DNA from: a virus
Taxonomy: Duplodnaviria > Heunggongvirae > Uroviricota > Caudoviricetes
DNA length: 25,319 nt
IMG/VR virus record: IMGVR_UViG_2648501787_000014
Direction: 5' to 3' (one strand)
In this document: positions 16,450-25,319 of the stretch, piece after piece
How the letters are laid out: the number at the start of each line of letters is the position of its first letter
Position numbering within the stretch: the first letter of the stretch is position 1
The notes under the pieces: model-generated
The model's database searches: none
Seen by the model: only the letters and a program-made list of their open reading frames with translations
Told to the model about the DNA's origin: nothing
Made by a program: the position numbers and the translations under genes

Positions 16450-17865
16450 ATGGCTACGTGGCAACATGGTATTAATTCTGGTGGTTTTCTGGCTGGCATC
16501 GGTACGCAAAATGAGAATGCGCCAAAGGCAAGCGACATTAACGCAACGCTTGGTCTGATCCGCGAAAACAATGAGTTGGCTCGCTCAGGTGCAAATAACG
16601 TTGGTCTGACCGCGTTACGTGGTCTGGCTGGAGTTGCTGATATTTACAATCAGGAACAGCAACAGAAAGCGATTAGTGCGTTCAATAAGGTTCACGCTGA
16701 TGCATGGGCTTCTGGTGATCCATCGGGACTATTTAAGTTTGCCCAGGAAAATCCAGCGTTTGTTGCACAGGCACAACAGGCGTTTTCTGGTCTTAATGAT
16801 CAGCAACGCAACGATATGGGCGATTTAGCCATGAGGGCTAACGTCGCTCTTTCTCAGGGACCGGAAGCCTACAGTAAATTCATTACTGACAACAAGGACA
16901 GGTTAAATCGCGTTGGTGCTAATGCTGACTGGATGATTCAGACAGGTATCCAGAATCCAGAGCAGCTATCACACATGCTGACTACTATGTCTCTCGGTGC
17001 GCTTGGACCAGAAAAGGCGTTTGCTGTTCAGGATAAGATGGCTGGTCGTGAAATTGACCGAGGCAGGCTGGCAGAGACAATCCGCAGCAATCAGGCTGGT
17101 GAAGCACTTCAGGCGAGAGGGCAAAACCTTTCCTATCAGTCAGCAATGACTGGGCACAATATCGCAGCACAACGCTTGGCTCTGGATCAGCAAGAGTTCG
17201 GGTTTAAGATGCAGCAAGCGCAGGAAAAGGCTCAGCAGTTGATTAGTGAAGCACCTAAGCTGTCAGTAAACATGGAAAAAGGCATCGAGACGGCTGTAAA
17301 CAATGCCACAGCATCATCAAACTCAGCCAATTCTATGAGTGCGCTTGCTCAACAGTTCAGAGCAGAAAAACCAACGACAGGTTTGTTCGGTAACGCACAG
17401 AACATGTTCGCAAAACTTACCGGAAGCGATACGACATTGCGTGATTTGCGCATCCGCCAAAATGCCCTTGTTAACAGTCAGGTTCTTAAATTCCTACCTC
17501 CCGGCCCAGCAACGGATAAAGACGTTGAGATCGTTCGGCAGGGTGCGCCAACTGACATGGATAACCCTGAGACGGTCGCAAGATGGCTTGATGCAATGGC
17601 AAACCTTGAGCGACGAAACGCGCAGTTTAATGAGTTTAAAGCTGAGTGGATGAGCGCGAATGGCAATCCTGGACAATCGCGTAATGGCGGTCAGATATTG
17701 GGGTTGGATGTTAAAAAAGGTGAATCATTGGGGAGTGCCGTTAAGCGGTATATGTCATTGAATACTGACGCAGCGCCAGCACAAGATTCGACACCTTCAG
17801 GAGAACCACGGAATCAGGTTGGATCATATACCTCAAAATCAGGCATTCAATTTACGGTGGAATGA
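16450..17865 (+). CDS. Ejection protein (P22 gp20-like)
   Basis: 471 aa; size and position match gp20. Confidence 0.75.
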
Positions 17866-19703
17866 TGAAAGTAACTGCAAACGGTAAGACATTTACCTTC
17901 CCTGATGGTACGAGCACGGAAGATATTGGAGCCGCCATTGATGATTATTTTGCTGGTCAGGTTGTTCAGCAACAAACAGTTTATCAGGCCAATAATGCAC
18001 CAGTACGTGAAGAACCATCATTGATGCAACAAGCTGGCGATTGGCTCACTGGTGGTCAAAGTGCAGGGCAAATTGCAGAACAGGCTGGTCGTGGTCTGGT
18101 AAACATACCATTTGACGTATTGCAGGGTGGCGCAAGTCTGATTAATGCAATCAGTCAGGGGCTTGGTGGGCCAAAAGTTTTGGATGATGTTTATCGTCCA
18201 GTAGACAAACCGACAGACCCATACGCACAAGCCGGTGAAACAATTGGTGGGTATTTAGTTCCAGGAGTTGGAACGGCAGGAAGCATGGCTATTGGATCGC
18301 TGGCAGAGGCCGCAAATCAGAAAGGCGATTTCGCACAAAATGCAGCTAAAAATGCCGGAGTTAACCTTGCCGCTCAGGGTGTTCTTTCCGCAGCAGCAAA
18401 GGGAATAGGGCGTGGAATAACGGCTATAAAAGGTGATATTGCGCCAGAAGTGGCGAAGAAAATTGCCACATCAGAATCGATGGGCGTGACACCAATGACA
18501 TCTGATGTTATCCCGCCGAAAAATGCTTTCACTCGCGGCCTTACTCAGGATGCCGAGGGGGCTTTGCTCGGGACGGGCTCAAAGCGAGCAGAGCAATATG
18601 CAACGCGGAGTAAGCTGGTAAGCAATTATTTTGACCGTTTTGGTGAGTACAACCCTGATGATGTGGTGAAATCTCTGACCACCACGTTAAGGGGGCGGAA
18701 GGATGCCGCTGGCGCTGTTATCAATGACGTCACCAATAAAATGGGTAATGCCGCAGTTGATACCACAAATACCATGAATGCTCTGAATACAGCGATCGCA
18801 AGACAGGAACGGCTTGGGACGTCTGCCAATCAAAGCCTGCTTACATCCTTGCGTAACCTACGTGAAGAATTAGCAAACCCTGCAACTGATTTGGATGTTA
18901 CGTTTGATCTCTTGCGTCAGCACAGAACAGCATTTAGATCTAATGTTCAGGGAGATGCTATGGTCTTCCCCAACCAGGCAAAAGCAGCTACCAATATGGT
19001 AGAGAATGCAATGTCAAAAGACCTTCGTAACGCAGTTGCTAAAAACCTCGGTGCATCAGACGCAGCAAAATACCTTAAAGCAAATTCCGATTATGCAAAC
19101 GTTTATAATAAGGTGCTTAATAAAAACATTGCCAACAAGCTCAACAAGGCAAGCAGTGAAGCCAGTCCTGAACTTATAAATACCGTTGTATTAAGCAGAA
19201 AACCATCTGACGTGAAACGAATCTGGAGCGCACTGGATGATAAGGGGAAAGATGCTATGCGTGCAGCTTACGTCAGCAAAATAGCGGAAAAGGCCGGGGA
19301 CTCTCCAGCCAAGTTCATCACTGAAGTTAATAAGCTGAAATCTCAGTCAGGCGGTGAAATTTACAACACTATTTTTTCTGGAAAGCACATGAAAGAGCTT
19401 GATGCTCTTCATGAAGTTCTACAGCAAACAGCAAGGTCAGACACCGCAAATGTAGTAACTCAGACGGGGCAATCGCAAGCCAACAGGATAAGGACGATTG
19501 GCGCAACTGCGACCCTTGGCGTATCAATGGGGCTTGAGGCTGGTTTTGGTGCAATGATGCGCTTGTATGAGTCCAAAGCAGCAAGGAATATGCTTCTTCG
19601 TTTGGCAAACACCAAAGCAGGAACACCAGCCTATGAAAGAGCGATAAATAACGCTGCGAATGCCATCAGACCGCTGTTTGCTACTGAGGCAACACAGCAG
19701 TAA
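17862..19703 (+). CDS. Ejection protein (P22 gp16-like)
   Basis: 613 aa; overlaps the gp20 stop; size and position match gp16. Confidence 0.75.
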
Positions 19704-19727: not shown

Positions 19728-20117
19728 CTAACATTTTCTTTTTACTTTTCCAACAAAAGCTTTGGTTGAATCCATATTTCCATAACCGGAAATGGTTTTT
19801 GACATTAAAACTGTTCCAGTAGGATGTATTACCCATGAGTCGATAACGCGTTGAGTTTCGCCATTCGCGCCGATTCCTATGATGGAGTTTTTAGACAATG
19901 CTTTGTAAGCCATGCCGCCCGCATCTGTCCCAGAATATGTGATGCTGGCATCTTCACCGTTTGTCTTAATGATGAATGTTCCACTAAAACCATCTTCTTC
20001 CGGATGGAAATTATTTCGTTCTGAATAGCTTATTCCGCGCATATCTCCAACGACCCAGCACTCTGCTGTAGCCCCAAAAGATATGAATAAGAACATAGCA
20101 GTAAGAAATTGCTTCAC
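19728..20117 (-). CDS. Secreted (periplasmic) protein of unknown function; probable moron
   Basis: GTG start preceded by the strong SD taaggaggt (5-nt spacing); signal peptide VKQFLTAMFLFISFGATA then ECW...; opposite strand to the virion genes. The track ORF extends to an upstream ATG at 20198, which lacks an SD. Confidence 0.5.
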   Translation of the reverse strand: MKQFLTAMFLFISFGATAECWVVGDMRGISYSERNNFHPEEDGFSGTFIIKTNGEDASITYSGTDAGGMAYKALSKNSIIGIGANGETQRVIDSWVIHPTGTVLMSKTISGYGNMDSTKAFVGKVKRKC

Positions 20118-20234
20118 GCCAACCTCCTTAGTTTTGAGCAGGATACCATGAAAAAAGTAAACATCTTTTGCGTACTTCACATTTGAATGGTTTGTCATTA
20201 GGATGTTTCCGGTTTTTTAAATATGGAAATTGAT

Positions 20235-20654
20235 ATGAAGAGGATTATTGGCGTCGTTGCTGGCGCTATATTGTTATCTGGGTGCGCAACTATTGTTGGT
20301 GACGAAACGCAGCTTGTGCAAGTGAACAGCAATCCTTCCGGTGCGAGCTTTAAGGTAAAAGACGAATCAGGCGTGATTGTTGCGCAAGGTAAGACCCCGC
20401 AAGGAGTAACTCTTGCCAAGTCAGATGGTAGTTATTTTGGCAAAAAGAGCTACCAGATCACTATGGAGAAGGATGGGTACGAACCAGTTACCCTACCAAT
20501 CAAAGCCAATGCTAATGGTTGGTATATTGGTGGAAATCTTGTGTTTGGTGGGTTAATTGGTTGGCTTGCTGTAGATCCATTTAATGGTGGGATGTATACC
20601 TTGAAGCCTAAAGAGGCAAATGCATCCCTTATACCGTCAACAAAGCAAGACTAA
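20235..20654 (+). CDS. Lipoprotein of unknown function; candidate superinfection-exclusion or lysogenic-conversion protein
   Basis: Signal peptide with lipobox MKRIIGVVAGAILLSGC; Gly-rich amphipathic C-terminus; divergent from the secreted-protein gene; followed by a terminator. Start may instead be the ATG at 20223. Confidence 0.6.
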   Translation: MKRIIGVVAGAILLSGCATIVGDETQLVQVNSNPSGASFKVKDESGVIVAQGKTPQGVTLAKSDGSYFGKKSYQITMEKDGYEPVTLPIKANANGWYIGGNLVFGGLIGWLAVDPFNGGMYTLKPKEANASLIPSTKQD

Positions 20655-20661
20655 TAAATGG

Positions 20662-20686
20662 AACCCACCATCAGGTGGGTTTTTTG
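20662..20686. terminator. Bidirectional intrinsic terminator between the lipoprotein gene and mnt
   Basis: CCCACC-atca-GGTGGG hairpin flanked by an A-run on one side and TTTTTT on the other; convergent gene ends on both sides. Confidence 0.65.
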
Positions 20687-20922
20687 TACAAATCCTTCAG
20701 CGTATCAAACACCATCTTCTTAACAAGTTCGGACTGCTCATCAGCGATGCGTTCCGCATCGTCTCGATAGCCTGAAATTTTGGATTGCCTTGATACAGCA
20801 TCAGTCACTATCTGAACTAATTCTGAATTAATAGAGCGGCCATTGGATTTGGCTCGCTGTTTTAGTTTTTCCTTTAATTCGTAAGGTAGCCGCAGATTAA
20901 ATTGCGGGTCATCTCTTCCCAT
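20671..20922 (-). CDS. mnt: Mnt repressor (Arc/MetJ ribbon-helix-helix family)
   Basis: 83 aa, MGRDDPQFNLRLPYELKEKLKQRAKSNGRSINSELVQIV...ELVKKMVFDTLKDLYKK, closely resembling P22 Mnt. Confidence 0.85.
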   Translation of the reverse strand: MGRDDPQFNLRLPYELKEKLKQRAKSNGRSINSELVQIVTDAVSRQSKISGYRDDAERIADEQSELVKKMVFDTLKDLYKKPT

Positions 20923-20985
20923 TCTTGATGCCTCGCTTTTGTGAGTGGATCGGCATCTTATTATTTGCTGGTTGCATCCTCAATA

Positions 20986-21000
20986 AGACCACTGTGGTCT
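20986..21000. promoter_or_regulatory. Candidate Mnt operator (Omnt-like palindrome)
   Basis: AGACCAC-T-GTGGTCT: perfect 7-bp inverted repeat about a central T, 64 bp upstream of the mnt start, in the divergent promoter region. Confidence 0.5.
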
Positions 21001-21347
21001 CTTTATTTGATTAATAATGCATCACTGCGGCCACGCTGCAGCGATTCCTTGTATCTGGAGCAAATTAAATGACAGATATTATAAATAGGAATTGTTATTT
21101 AATAATATTTGAAAATGAAAATCATGGACGATAGGAATAAAAGTAGTACTTGTTATTTTTAAGTGACGCATTAAACGCATAAAGCATATGTCTGTTGATC
21201 AAGATTCTTGCTTGTTGTAAAATAATTGTTTTGTTCATGTTGTATAGTTTTAAAGTGAATAGAAGATTATTTTTCAAAACAATTGCATCTTTGTCTGCAG
21301 TCATTCCGTTTTCTTCAATATCTAAATTTTCAAACAGGATGACTAAT

Positions 21348-22754
21348 ATGCCTGATATAACTCCAAATGTTGTAATTGGGATGCCTTCTCAACTCTTCAC
21401 TATGGCTCGTTCTTTTAAAGCCGTAGCTAATGGCAAAATTTATATCGGTAAAATTGACACTGACCCGGTAAATCCTGAAAACCAGATTCAGGTTTATGTG
21501 GAGAACGAAGACGGCTCTCACGTTCCTGTATCGCAACCAATCATCATTAACGCTGCTGGTTACCCGGTATATAACGGACAGATTGCCAAGTTCGTAACTG
21601 TGCAAGGCCATTCTATGGCTGTATATGATGCGTATGGTGCGCAGCAGTTCTATTTTCCTAATGTGCTGAAGTATGACCCAGAACAATTTAAAGATACACT
21701 TCATTCTGCGAGCGGAGCGGATAATGTTGGATATAGGGGTTATACTGTTAGTGAGTATCTTTCACACACCGCATTGAGTTTTGGTAACTTAAACGATTGT
21801 CTGTCTCATGACAAATACAAGATAGGAGATAAAGTATTTGTACATGGATATAATTATCCATCAGATGGAGGAATGGCTTCATTTGAGGTTGTGTCATCAG
21901 ATGAACCAGTTGGAATAAAAACTTACGATGGTAAGTTTAAGCTAAAGCGAACATCTGGGCATAATTATCTTGAGTTAATAATAAAAAATGGTGCGACGCC
22001 AAAGATAATTGCCCATAGAGGATGGGCAGGAATAACGCCAAATGAATATCAGGGAGCATTGACTGCGCCTGTTTATTTCGTTCCAGAAAATACAAGGGCA
22101 TCAATTAGATTTTGTGCTGAAAGAGGAGCTTTTGGTGTTGAAGGGGATACCAAAATAACATTAGACGGAGTTCCTGTCATATTCCATGATGAGACAGTTG
22201 ATAGAACTACAAATGGTACTGGTGCCGTATCAACATTTACTTTTTTAGAGCTAAAGGCCCTCGATGCTGGATCGTATGTTTCTGGTATTTATGCAGATGA
22301 GAAAATACTCAATTATGATGAATGGATTAGAGAATGCAAGCGTCGCGGAGTAATGCCATTTGTTGAGTGGTCTGCGCCAATGAGTGTCACTCAAGCTGAT
22401 AATTTTCTTGAAACTATAAATAAATATTATGGCACAAAGCCGACGAATGTCTTTGTTTATTCAACATATCCTGCCGTTCTTGAACTGTTGCGTTCAAAAA
22501 ATGCTTATATTGGACTTGGTGTTATACCATCTTACGGTGTCGCACCAACTACAGAACAATTGGAGCTGGCGTATAAGCTTGGCAACTGTGGTATATCTCT
22601 ATCAGGTGGAATAATTACGAATGCCGCTGTTGTAAATTCAGTTAAGAAATATGGTTTGTTGTTGATTTATGCAATTGCTAACACCCCGGCAAGAATTGAT
22701 AATTGCATATCTGCAGGCGTTGATATAATGATTACTGATTGCTATAGAGGGTAA
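21348..22754 (+). CDS. Tailspike: P22-type N-terminal head-binding domain fused to a GDPD (glycerophosphodiester phosphodiesterase) domain
   Basis: N-terminal ~110 aa ([38 protein letters not shown]...[13 protein letters not shown]...[10 protein letters not shown]) match the P22 gp9 head-binding domain. C-terminal half carries GDPD motifs: [32 protein letters not shown]. Confidence 0.8.
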
Positions 22755-22755
22755 A

Positions 22756-23541
22756 ATGAATATAAAAACATATAGACAAATTCATGGTGGTATGAGGTCG
22801 TTTGTTACCACAAGTTTATTCCCTGTTGGGGCGAATAAATTTGACAAATCCGATGCAAGGAAGTCTGTTCTCAGTAAGACATCATCAGATAGTGCGGCGC
22901 TGGAAGTGATGGATTTAGGATGGCTGGCTGCTGGTACATGTATTTCATTTTGCTGTGATATAAAAATAAATACTCAAATGTCTGGTGCACCGTCAATAAG
23001 CATCGAGTCGCGTAATGGCGCAAGGCTAAGTGATGGAAGGAAAATAGTAAACATAGGCACGACTAACTCTAAAGAATGGGAGACAGTGCGTTGTGATTGG
23101 ATTGTGTCTGAGTTTGATAACTGGATAACTCTGTCATATGGGGCTTCTACACCTGTATTGGGACAGTTTGAGTTCAGAAATCCAAGAATTTCTATCACGA
23201 ATGATCAGGCTAGATTGCCTATAAATTTCTCTCTACTCAGATCAGGTAATGTTTGGCGTGTTGATACTGGCACATTTATTTACAATGGAGCTGTATTAGT
23301 ATCAGCAAACGGTGACTCAATAGAGGTTAGTTGGCCATATGTGAACAATATTAGATCACCAATAGTTCACACAACTATAGATACTGGTTTTAGTCTGTTA
23401 TCTGCTGGATGTATATCATGCGGTCCACATTCAGTAAGTAATTCAGGATGCAAAATTCGATTAATTAAACCTGATGGCTCATTTGTAACAGATGTTACAA
23501 ATGGAACGACACTGAGAATTCATGTAAGCGTTAATTATTAA
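22756..23541 (+). CDS. Hypothetical protein (261 aa) coupled to the tailspike; possible receptor-binding accessory
   Basis: Starts 2 nt after the tailspike stop; same AT-rich composition; Ser/Thr/Asn/Gly-rich, beta-like sequence; no TM segment or known motif recognised. Confidence 0.5.
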   Translation: MNIKTYRQIHGGMRSFVTTSLFPVGANKFDKSDARKSVLSKTSSDSAALEVMDLGWLAAGTCISFCCDIKINTQMSGAPSISIESRNGARLSDGRKIVNIGTTNSKEWETVRCDWIVSEFDNWITLSYGASTPVLGQFEFRNPRISITNDQARLPINFSLLRSGNVWRVDTGTFIYNGAVLVSANGDSIEVSWPYVNNIRSPIVHTTIDTGFSLLSAGCISCGPHSVSNSGCKIRLIKPDGSFVTDVTNGTTLRIHVSVNY

Positions 23542-23801
23542 TTCAACATGTGCGCACGTACCCCTATGAACACACGAGTCTTTGAGTTGTGTGATTAATG
23601 AGACACACAAAGCTTTGCACTTGATTGCAAGGCTTTGTGCTCTTCTGTGGATGTGTGGCTACATGTTTGAAGATCGTTGTGTCGTATTTGTGACATACAC
23701 ATGACAACATCATGCATCAACTTTCTGTTTGTGCCATCAACTATAGCTTAGTGAATGCGGTTAATGCTTGCTAAAACAGATAGTTATGATTGGTGCTACA
23801 G

Positions 23802-23847
23802 ATTCGTAATGCGAAGGTCGTAGGTTCGACTCCTATTATCGGCACCA
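23802..23847 (+). other. Partial tRNA-Thr (thrW-like) 3' end: prophage att core (attR)
   Basis: ATTCGTAATGCGAAGGTCGTAGGTTCGACTCCTATTATCGGCACCA is the anticodon-loop-to-CCA portion of enterobacterial tRNA-Thr; the upstream sequence cannot supply the 5' acceptor strand or D-arm. Confidence 0.75.
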
Positions 23848-24001
23848 TTCTAACGTCTCCCCAAGTCTACTCAAGTATTTAAAAACCTCTTATAATCAGT
23901 ATATTAATGCCCCTTTTAGTCTTTTGACGTCTATTTAAGTACCCCAAACTCTACAAGCAATTGAGGGGATTTGCTGTTCAGTTTAGTGGAGATACCCCCA
24001 A

Positions 24002-24340
24002 GTGAAACTCAATGCCCGTCAAATAGACACTGCCAAGCCAAAAGAGAAGGCTTACAAGTTGGCTGATGGTGGTGGTCTGTACCTCCTGGTAAAACCTGGT
24101 GGAGGAGAATATTGGCGTCTCAAGTATCGTGTAGCTGGTAAAGAGAAGCTGTTAGCACTAGGTGTGTATCCTGAGGTCACCTTAGCTGATGCTCCTGCAA
24201 AACTTGAAGAAGCTAAAAGAGGTATCTCTGGGGGAATCGATCTGATGGAAGTGAAGCGCGAGGAAAAGATTGCCCGGGAAACGCAGTTAAACAACACCTT
24301 CAAAGATATTGCCCTTGAGTGGCACAGTAACAAATTATAA
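24002..24340 (+). pseudogene. Truncated P4-type tyrosine integrase (N-terminal arm-binding domain only)
   Basis: GTG-start ORF VKLNARQIDTAKPKEKAYKLADGGGLYLLVKPGGGEYWRLKYR...LALGVYPEVTLADA is a typical P4-family integrase N-terminus but stops after 112 aa, with no catalytic domain. Confidence 0.7.
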
Positions 24341-24770: not shown

Positions 24771-24810
24771 AACGTCAATTAACATCAATTAACATCAATT
24801 AACATTAAGG
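24771..24810. repeat. Four tandem copies of a 10-bp unit (aacRtcaatt)
   Basis: aacgtcaatt aacatcaatt aacatcaatt aacattaagg; overlaps the last codons and 3' flank of the MarR-like gene. Confidence 0.7.
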
Positions 24811-25289
24811 TTTGATAATAATTTTTTGTTGGCGAGTTCAAATGTTTTCATTTCATCATCTGATAGCCCGCTCCAGATTTTCTTTAGCATTACATTTTGA
24901 GTGTTTATTAGTTTTTGAGCAAGTGTAACTCCGTCAGGGGTTAAGCAAATACTTTTGCTTCGACGATCGTTTTTATTATTAATTCTTTTGGCAATATTCT
25001 TTTTTTCTAATTTGTCTATGATGTGTGTGATGTTTGTTTTGGAGAATTGTAACTCCTTGTAAATATCAGAAGGGGACTGACAATAATCATCAGACATATA
25101 TAATGAAACTAACACCATAAATGTTGAAGTGTTTATTCTATACTCGCTCAATTCATTTTCTATAATACTCTGGATTTTGTCATTTACTCTAATATATAAG
25201 TGTATTAACAGACTCTCCTGAGCCGGGTATGCCGGATTTTTGATTTTTTTGTAGTTTGTTATAGTTTTTAATAAATCTATATTATTCAT
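24795..25289 (-). CDS. MarR-family winged-helix transcriptional regulator
   Basis: MarR-type wHTH segment SPSDIYKELQFSKTNITHIIDKLEKKNIAKRINNKNDRRSKSICLTPDG; very AT-rich. Start taken at the internal Met (MNNIDLL, GGTGG RBS); the track ORF runs to the window edge at 25319. Confidence 0.65.
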   Translation of the reverse strand: MNNIDLLKTITNYKKIKNPAYPAQESLLIHLYIRVNDKIQSIIENELSEYRINTSTFMVLVSLYMSDDYCQSPSDIYKELQFSKTNITHIIDKLEKKNIAKRINNKNDRRSKSICLTPDGVTLAQKLINTQNVMLKKIWSGLSDDEMKTFELANKKLLSNLNVN

Positions 25290-25319
25290 AATTCCACCAC
25301 ACGGCAAAAGAAAACTCAT

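Follow-up and report, generated by a model that had tools for sequence, protein, structure and literature searches.

A P22-type tailspike with a glycerophosphodiesterase-fold domain and a co-inherited partner gene in an Escherichia coli prophage

The tailspike gene and its prophage

The whole stretch of DNA analyzed, referred to below as the window, is 25,319 nucleotides long (IMG/VR record IMGVR_UViG_2648501787_000014) and constitutes the right arm of a P22-like (Lederbergvirus) prophage of E. coli. Its structural genes are 94–96% identical to those of CUS-3, phiv205-1, HK620 and Sf101, the closest backbone being that of CUS-3 (95.8% DNA identity over 56% of the window). The late operon of a P22-like phage predicts the tailspike downstream of the gp16-like gene and mnt, and here, in synteny with CUS-3 and HK620, lies a gene whose product is laid out as a head-binding domain, a neck, a small alpha/beta domain and a barrel with the fold of glycerophosphodiester phosphodiesterases (GDPDs). 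The features of this part of the window are as follows.

17862–19703: gp16-like open reading frame, upstream of the tailspike gene
19728–20198, minus strand: 156-aa protein, phrog_2651
20223–20654, plus strand: 143-aa putative lipoprotein, phrog_6823, with weak PEGA and Cor-like N-terminal matches
20671–20922: mnt, 83 aa, with Arc and Repressor_Mnt domains, in the immunity-I region
21348–22754, plus strand: tailspike gene, 468 aa (open reading frame; Pfam PF09008 and PF03009)
21348–21686, plus strand: P22-type head-binding (tail-attachment) domain, residues 1–113 (PF09008; Sf6 gp14 7sg7, P22 gp9 1lkt/2vky)
21687–21764, plus strand: neck or linker, residues 114–139, the module junction (collapse of identity with the CUS-3 spike; low pLDDT)
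21765–21995, plus strand: small alpha/beta domain, residues 140–216, GYNxxxDGG...FKLKRxSGH (pLDDT >90; invariant columns)
21996–22751, plus strand: GDPD TIM barrel, residues 217–468, with the catalytic set H223, R224, E247, E265, D267, H280 and E340 intact (PF03009; Foldseek match 2pz0; residue map; invariance)

The start codon of the tailspike gene is the ATG at 21348, 8 nt past an AGGA at 21336–21339, and its stop is the TAA at 22752–22754. An alternative in-frame ATG three codons upstream abuts the same AGGA and is a poorer start.

An earlier note on this DNA had claimed that the first ~110 residues are homologous to the attachment domain of P22 gp9 and that a GDPD domain takes the place of the beta-helix, and it had proposed profile searches for the two families. 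Pfam finds both. The Head_binding profile (PF09008) is covered in full by residues 1–113, with an E-value of 5.3e-66, and a sequence search of the PDB returned Sf6 gp14 (7sg7), near-identical over residues 1–118, as well as structures of P22 gp9 at E-values of 1e-44 to 1e-49. Tailspike 5' ends in more than 1,100 E. coli genomes share 92–96% DNA identity with the head-binding part. Similarity to other P22-like spikes ends at about residues 113–125, the classical module junction; in a pairwise alignment with the CUS-3 spike, identity is near-complete to about residue 113 and then collapses. A neck domain common to the two spikes was considered on the basis of a tblastn match over residues 1–205 and rejected, since pairwise identity is real only to about residues 113–125, the remainder being BLAST extension. 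Since the structures homologous to the head-binding domain are trimeric, three spike chains would be expected on the virion.

Beyond the junction the protein departs from its P22-like relatives. An AlphaFold2 model built from a 91-sequence alignment has a pLDDT above 90 over residues 140–468, and it contains no parallel beta-helix glycanase domain; an alpha/beta domain and a TIM barrel are found instead, with GDPDs as the top structural matches, so the replacement claimed earlier is borne out. The head-binding part is poorly modeled owing to a thin alignment, though solved homologues exist. Relative to other family members, the neck of this spike bears an insertion of ~14 residues ([14 protein letters not shown]; 21708–21749, residues 121–134) that resembles the "GAxxVGY" neck motif common in beta-helix tailspikes.

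The surroundings of the gene show several peculiarities. The immunity-I region (20671–21347) is without arc or ant, and in their stead there is a spacer of 425 bp. The interval from the gp16-like gene to mnt contains two moron-like genes, one of which, encoding the 143-aa putative lipoprotein, is possibly a superinfection-exclusion factor. At the other end, a partial 3' copy of a tRNA-Thr gene (~23790–23850) marks the junction of prophage and chromosome; phage DNA ends near 23.8 kb, and host-identical DNA (99.9%) begins at ~23802. ARAGORN found no complete tRNA in the window. The E. coli chromosome past the junction, with a GC content of 34%, carries two open reading frames, the first of which is left over from another element at this tRNA.

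24002–24340, plus strand: 112-aa open reading frame, limited to the Arm DNA-binding part of a P4-type integrase
24795–25319, minus strand: MarR-family regulator, reaching the end of the window

The barrel and its active site

The GDPD profile (PF03009) matches residues 241–464 over profile positions 9–240 of 244, with an E-value of 1.3e-23 and a score of 84.8 bits as compared to a gathering cut-off of 23.6 bits. The E-values of both domains are so low that the assignments lie far beyond chance. In the PDB sequence search, the C-terminus of the spike matches the GDPD 2pz0 (E-value 1.6e-16) and, weakly, GP-PDE proteins of staphylococcal phages, and a lysophosphatidylglycerol phospholipase D (8ghh) and a lysoplasmalogenase (7ym0) are also among the matches. 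Comparison of structures leads to the same family. The best Foldseek match to the model in the PDB is again 2pz0, the GDPD of T. tengcongensis (E-value 2e-18, TM-score 0.84 on the target), and the GDPD fold is present in all 50 of the 50 best matches listed, which include the C-terminal domain of phage K gp155 (9f5m), the central spike of phi812 (9eul) and B. subtilis GlpQ (5t91). The GDPD fold that the earlier note expected from structure prediction is thus recovered: the best matches of the confidently modeled residues 140–468 are GDPD TIM barrels.

Each of the signature motifs that had been named (HRG, ENT, E-x-D and HD...DRTTNG-G) is present in the spike, as AHRGW at residues 222–226, PENT at 246–249, EGD at 265–267 and [14 protein letters not shown] at 279–292. 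A gap-free HMMER alignment equates E265/D267, H280 and E340 with E44/D46, H59 and E119 of 2pz0, and the AHRGW motif supplies the equivalence of H223/R224 with H17/R18. The catalytic His, Arg, Glu and Asp residues, on whose presence the earlier claim depended, therefore align with those of a known GDPD; moreover, H223/R224, E265/D267, H280 and E340 are invariant in 21 family members (42–99% identity), and the catalytic residues are at least 90% conserved over 91 GDPD homologues. Judged by sequence and model, the C-terminal domain is a GDPD fold with all metal-binding and acid/base residues conserved, and phosphodiesterase activity is its predicted property.

Two features set the active site apart. 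Lys121 of 2pz0, found in the sequence IEIK after the third metal ligand, is replaced in the spike by Ser342 (in VEWS), a serine that is invariant in the family, and ~12 additional residues adjoin the active site, between HRG and PENT. With the substitution and the insertion, the substrate or the chemistry may differ from those of classical GDPDs.

The small domain that precedes the barrel (residues 140–216) has no match to any known family. Its invariant columns are G167, Y168, N169, D173, G174 and G175. When the 120 best GDPD homologues were compared by local phmmer, this domain (from residue ~125–140 to 216) was confined to proteins P0001–P0020, all of which are accompanied by a particular partner gene.

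A two-gene cassette and its spread

The tailspike gene is followed by this partner and then by a terminator, and most of the region belongs to a block with a near-identical counterpart in another prophage.

22756–23541, plus strand: partner gene, 261 aa, two beta-sandwich domains, CBM- and fibre-tip-like (GAGG at 22747–22750; ATG 1 nt past the spike stop; translationally coupled)
23606–23639, plus strand: strong terminator-like hairpin closing the two-gene cassette, 14-bp stem and T-rich tail, inside the 99%-identical block
21380–23645, plus strand: exchangeable block, 2,266 bp, 99.0% identical to the P22-like prophage L001 (blastn)

A homologue of the partner (257–264 aa) lies directly 3' of the spike gene in 13 of 13 family loci outside the window (L001–L007, L009–L012, L014 and L015), taken from E. 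coli, Kluyvera and Proteus. These represent eight distinct cassette lineages, over which the identity of the partner ranges from 33 to 100%. Among the sources of the cassette are GCA_013074365.1, the runs ERR13620999 and SRR16572020, GCA_009184605.1 (Proteus) and CP162271.1 (Kluyvera). In a database of 5.8 billion proteins, ~20 clusters match residues ~125–468 of the spike at 48–100% identity, and their sources are E. coli, Kluyvera sichuanensis, Providencia vermicola, Proteus mirabilis and metagenomes. The N-termini of the family vary: some have the P22 head-binding domain, others Tail_spike_N (PF18668) or the T7 tail-fibre N-terminal domain (PF03906), and in others none is recognized. Genomic settings vary as well, from P22-like prophages (L001, L006, L014/15) to a ~72-kb SU10/kuravirus-like phage (L003–5), siphovirus tail modules of two kinds (L002, L007, L011) and a myovirus baseplate cluster (L012). 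Such differences in N-terminus and setting are what marks a receptor-binding module as horizontally exchanged. Spike and partner gene adjoin each other in every case and are inherited together, and the pair moves among the tail modules of podo-, sipho- and myoviruses, where it stands behind differing virion adaptors.

The exchangeable block runs from about codon 11 of the spike gene to just beyond the terminator. L001 is a different P22-like prophage, differently organized, with another immunity-I region (it retains arc and ant) and another integration site, and an identity of 99.0% between such differing prophages indicates that the block moved between prophages recently. The recent acquisition proposed in the earlier note fits this result, and so does its idea of a mobile receptor-binding module, except in extent: the unit comprises two genes, the spike and the 261-aa partner that had been overlooked. 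The note was also right that the gene sits in AT-rich DNA. The GC content is 38.4% in the C-terminal part of the spike, 38% in the cassette and 32% in the non-coding spacer upstream, as compared to 49.1% in the structural-gene backbone. In L002, L007 and L012, the cassette is AT-poorer than its own backbone.

One E. coli assembly (GCA_013074365.1, contig WERF01000002.1, 207628–253064) has the cassette twice, 38.6 kb apart (L014 and L015). The same integrase comes after both copies; beyond it lie phage early genes in one case and host yfdC in the other. The two look like tandem P22-like prophages.

The cassette is rare. IMG/VR holds two loci only, one identical and one at 54%. No full-length member was found in 50,697 phage records, nor was the cassette found by megablast and sensitive blastn in 5,426 complete E. 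coli genomes. The phage records contain only distant GDPD tail proteins, mostly from Gram-positive phages. The Gram-negative exceptions are GDPD domains of 31–36% identity in annotated tail or tail-fibre proteins of three cultured phages, the first of which was grown on O-antigen-less K-12.

Escherichia phage DTL, 38904–39284: distant GDPD domain (H98/H99)
Erwinia phage Snitter, 15062–15637: distant GDPD domain (H86)
Aeromonas phage pAEv1810: distant GDPD domain (H109)

Rarity, the serine at the position of Lys121 and the loss of arc and ant from the prophage might together suggest a GDPD domain that binds but is catalytically dead, or a gene in decay within a cryptic prophage. I consider this extremely unlikely. 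The metal ligands and both catalytic histidines do not vary over the 21 sequences despite their divergence, the open reading frames are intact in every locus, and the window's structural genes are, as noted, close to those of functional phages. Where dN/dS could be estimated, it lies between 0.09 and 0.33 for both genes, well under 1 and pointing to purifying selection, although dS is saturated in most pairs and the values are therefore a rough bound only.

The partner matches no Pfam or PHROG family, and its sequence shows neither a signal peptide nor a membrane segment. An exhaustive HMMER search of 1.84 billion representative proteins returned only 8 relatives (256–266 aa), and another homologue search only 2 clusters as compared to these 8. 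Its model, predicted from database homologues, shows two beta-sandwiches of the jelly-roll type seen in CBM4/16/22 and resembles phage fibre tips; the CBM-like beta-sandwich is a very common fold, however, and so argues only weakly for a lectin role. Pairwise identities of partner and spike module are correlated (r = 0.88 over 21 pairs, which are not independent). Adjacency, co-inheritance and the restriction of the small domain to spikes with a partner lead me to infer that the partner functions as part of the spike. Most likely it docks on the spike, possibly at residues 140–216, and supplies glycan binding.

The position of the partner, where gtr, oac or neuO might be found, also raised the possibility of lysogenic conversion. 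This was rejected, because the protein lacks a signal peptide and membrane segment and because in lytic-type and myovirus genomes the gene lies within the structural modules. Another candidate role is that of an assembly chaperone for a non-canonical spike, comparable to tail-fibre assembly proteins: the partner would then be missing from the virion, and the spike itself would bind the glycan. Small, translationally coupled genes downstream of fibre genes often do encode chaperones, and the gene after a distant GDPD tail protein, P0068, a gene different from the partner, has a weak signature of the Peptidase_S74 chaperone. But the predicted fold of the partner is that of CBM or fibre-tip beta-sandwiches rather than any known Tfa, gp38 or S74 chaperone fold, and 261 aa is large for a chaperone. 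I therefore regard the chaperone role as somewhat unlikely, and a subunit of the spike remains the preferred interpretation.

The P0068 locus (L013, 6001–8410) encodes a protein with Tail_spike_N and a GDPD domain of 27% identity, followed by an unrelated gene of 352 aa, the one with the weak Peptidase_S74 match. The pair may represent a second, independent way to assemble a GDPD spike.

Known systems and the candidate substrate

The architecture places the protein among enzymatic tailspikes, with a predicted catalytic class that, within the literature searched, is new for phages of Enterobacterales, and in a two-gene cassette. Its closest relatives by position and attachment are the spikes of other lederbergviruses, P22 gp9, Sf6 gp14 and HK620 gp9, which have a homologous head-binding domain, the same location at the end of the late operon and a junction after YDP(D/E)Q. 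Those proteins, however, are trimeric endoglycosidases built as right-handed beta-helices, whereas an alpha/beta domain and a GDPD barrel follow the junction here, and a second gene is needed or at least co-inherited. The domain swap at the head-binding junction is itself classical, its closest parallel being the endosialidase spike of the E. coli K1 prophage CUS-3, in which a P22-type head-binding domain was also joined to an acquired catalytic module other than a beta-helix. The CUS-3 spike targets capsule and so provides a precedent for such a target in a P22-like phage; it differs in being a sialidase beta-propeller rather than a phosphodiesterase TIM barrel and in having an intramolecular C-terminal chaperone, with neuO downstream and no 261-aa partner.

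Fold and catalytic residues (the metal ligands and the His/His/Arg set) are those of cellular GDPDs such as 2pz0, UgpQ (2otd) and GlpQ (5t91), but identity with these is only 24–28%, and they lack the serine in place of Lys121, the extra HRG–PENT loop and the fusion to virion adaptors. Among phage proteins, phi29 gp12 degrades teichoic acid and is built on a beta-helix scaffold. The catalytic activity of this appendage is the subject of a study cited in PMC6116005, and the baseplate glycerophosphodiesterase of Lactobacillus phage Ld17 is reported to act on a polymer of the (lipo)teichoic-acid type (Cornelissen et al. 2016, J Biol Chem 291:16816, cited in PMC6116005). Both are phage tail proteins with phosphodiesterase-type action on teichoic-acid polymers, though of Gram-positive hosts, and no partner gene is described for them. 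The "petal" of the central spike of Staphylococcus phage 812 and its counterpart in phage K, gp155 (9eul, 9f5m), also display a GDPD-fold domain in threefold array on a tail protein and have been proposed to cleave teichoic acid (bioRxiv 10.1101/2024.09.19.613683). They are only ~20% identical to the spike and belong to a myovirus baseplate hub on a Gram-positive host instead of a lateral spike that determines host range, and their activity, too, is a proposal.

The earlier note had regarded characterized tailspikes as glycosidases, lyases or deacetylases, and a 2023 review classes coliphage spikes as hydrolases, lyases and deacetylases (PMC10743462). Phosphodiesterase-type tail proteins nevertheless have precedents, in the phages of Gram-positive hosts just named. 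The novelty consequently lies in the Gram-negative, P22-type context and in the partner, not in the chemistry. Nowhere in the literature searched, most subscription journals lying outside it, is the partner described or a Gram-negative phage credited with a GDPD spike.

Taking these observations together, I think it probable that the gene encodes the receptor-destroying tailspike of a temperate podovirus akin to P22 and CUS-3, with the beta-helix glycanase replaced by a cassette of small domain and GDPD barrel plus the lectin-like partner of 261 aa. Most likely it is a metal-dependent phosphodiesterase spike, the presumed substrate of which is an O-antigen or capsule containing glycerol phosphate. 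Three chains would attach to the tail through their head-binding domains and display three barrels, each holding a divalent metal by E265, D267 and E340 and using the pair His223 and His280. The barrel would hydrolyze the phosphodiester between glycerol phosphate (or a related alditol or sugar phosphate) and a sugar hydroxyl in a teichoic-acid-like O-antigen or capsule, the docked partner adding its glycan binding. A phosphate in the main chain would mean depolymerization of the glycan, one in a side group its stripping, and cleavage of the glycan would let the virion reach the outer membrane.

Some group 2 K antigens, and many O-antigens of Proteus and Providencia, are glycans of the glycerol-phosphate type. 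Within E. coli, glycerol 1-phosphate is present in the O28ab, O37 and O100 antigens, glycerol phosphate in O130 and glycerol 2-phosphate in O33, O29 is teichoic-acid-like, and O118/O151 contain ribitol phosphate (PMC7685785). The candidates in this species are O28, O29, O33, O37, O100 and O130, with phosphate-containing capsules also possible. The cassette suggests that phages have a tool against those surface polysaccharides of Gram-negative bacteria that are phosphate-linked ("teichoic-acid-like").

The range of strains open to a phage is set by its tailspike enzymes, and these are being developed into therapeutics that strip capsules and into reagents for typing. With a phosphodiesterase spike, the enzymology of phages would come to include glycans joined or decorated by phosphate, which are beyond the reach of glycosidases. 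The strictly co-inherited orphan partner suggests in addition that a catalytic domain other than a beta-helix needs a separate subunit for binding or assembly, a design rule of use in the engineering of receptor-binding proteins. I advance only tentatively the broader view, that trimeric GDPD spike and separately encoded lectin subunit form a portable hetero-oligomeric receptor-binding device, a class of depolymerases for phosphodiester-linked O-antigens and capsules of Gram-negative bacteria with interchangeable adaptors for podo-, sipho- and myovirus tails. If this view is true, no earlier phosphodiesterase depolymerase from phages of Enterobacterales is on record in the literature searched, and the device would offer a template for enzymes against phosphate-containing capsules.

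The spike might instead leave the O-antigen intact and strip from it, without depolymerization, a side substituent of glycerol phosphate or similar, moving processively like the deacetylase G7C gp63.1. Classical GDPDs free sn-glycerol-3-phosphate from small diesters, and B. subtilis GlpQ, one of the structural matches, is exo-acting on teichoic acid. Spikes that modify without cutting are established in coliphages: G7C gp63.1 itself is a coliphage spike with a non-glycanase esterase module swapped at the same kind of junction, although its module is an SGNH-type deacetylase acting on O-acetyl groups and not a phosphodiesterase (PMC10743462). Several E. coli O-antigens do carry Gro-P (PMC7685785). 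The sequence does not tell endo from exo or side-chain action, however, and the family-specific insertion near the active site could equally open a cleft for a polymer. On balance, I judge stripping alone to be unlikely.

Finally, the target could be a lipid-linked phosphodiester of the envelope, such as the phosphoglyceride anchor of ECA-PG, the lyso-phosphatidylglycerol anchor of group 2 capsules or (lyso)phospholipids of the outer membrane, in which case the enzyme would aid penetration and not recognition. Consistent with this, 8ghh and 7ym0 are lipid-acting enzymes of the GDPD fold, ECA-PG is phosphodiester-linked (PMC10743462), and phage DTL, with its distant GDPD tail-fibre protein, grows on a host devoid of O-antigen. 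Yet the anchors are buried under the glycan layer, the spike holds the position that determines host range, and its fast divergence (48–74% identity) alongside a lectin-like partner is what one expects of serotype-specific receptor-binding proteins, all of which makes a lipid target very unlikely.
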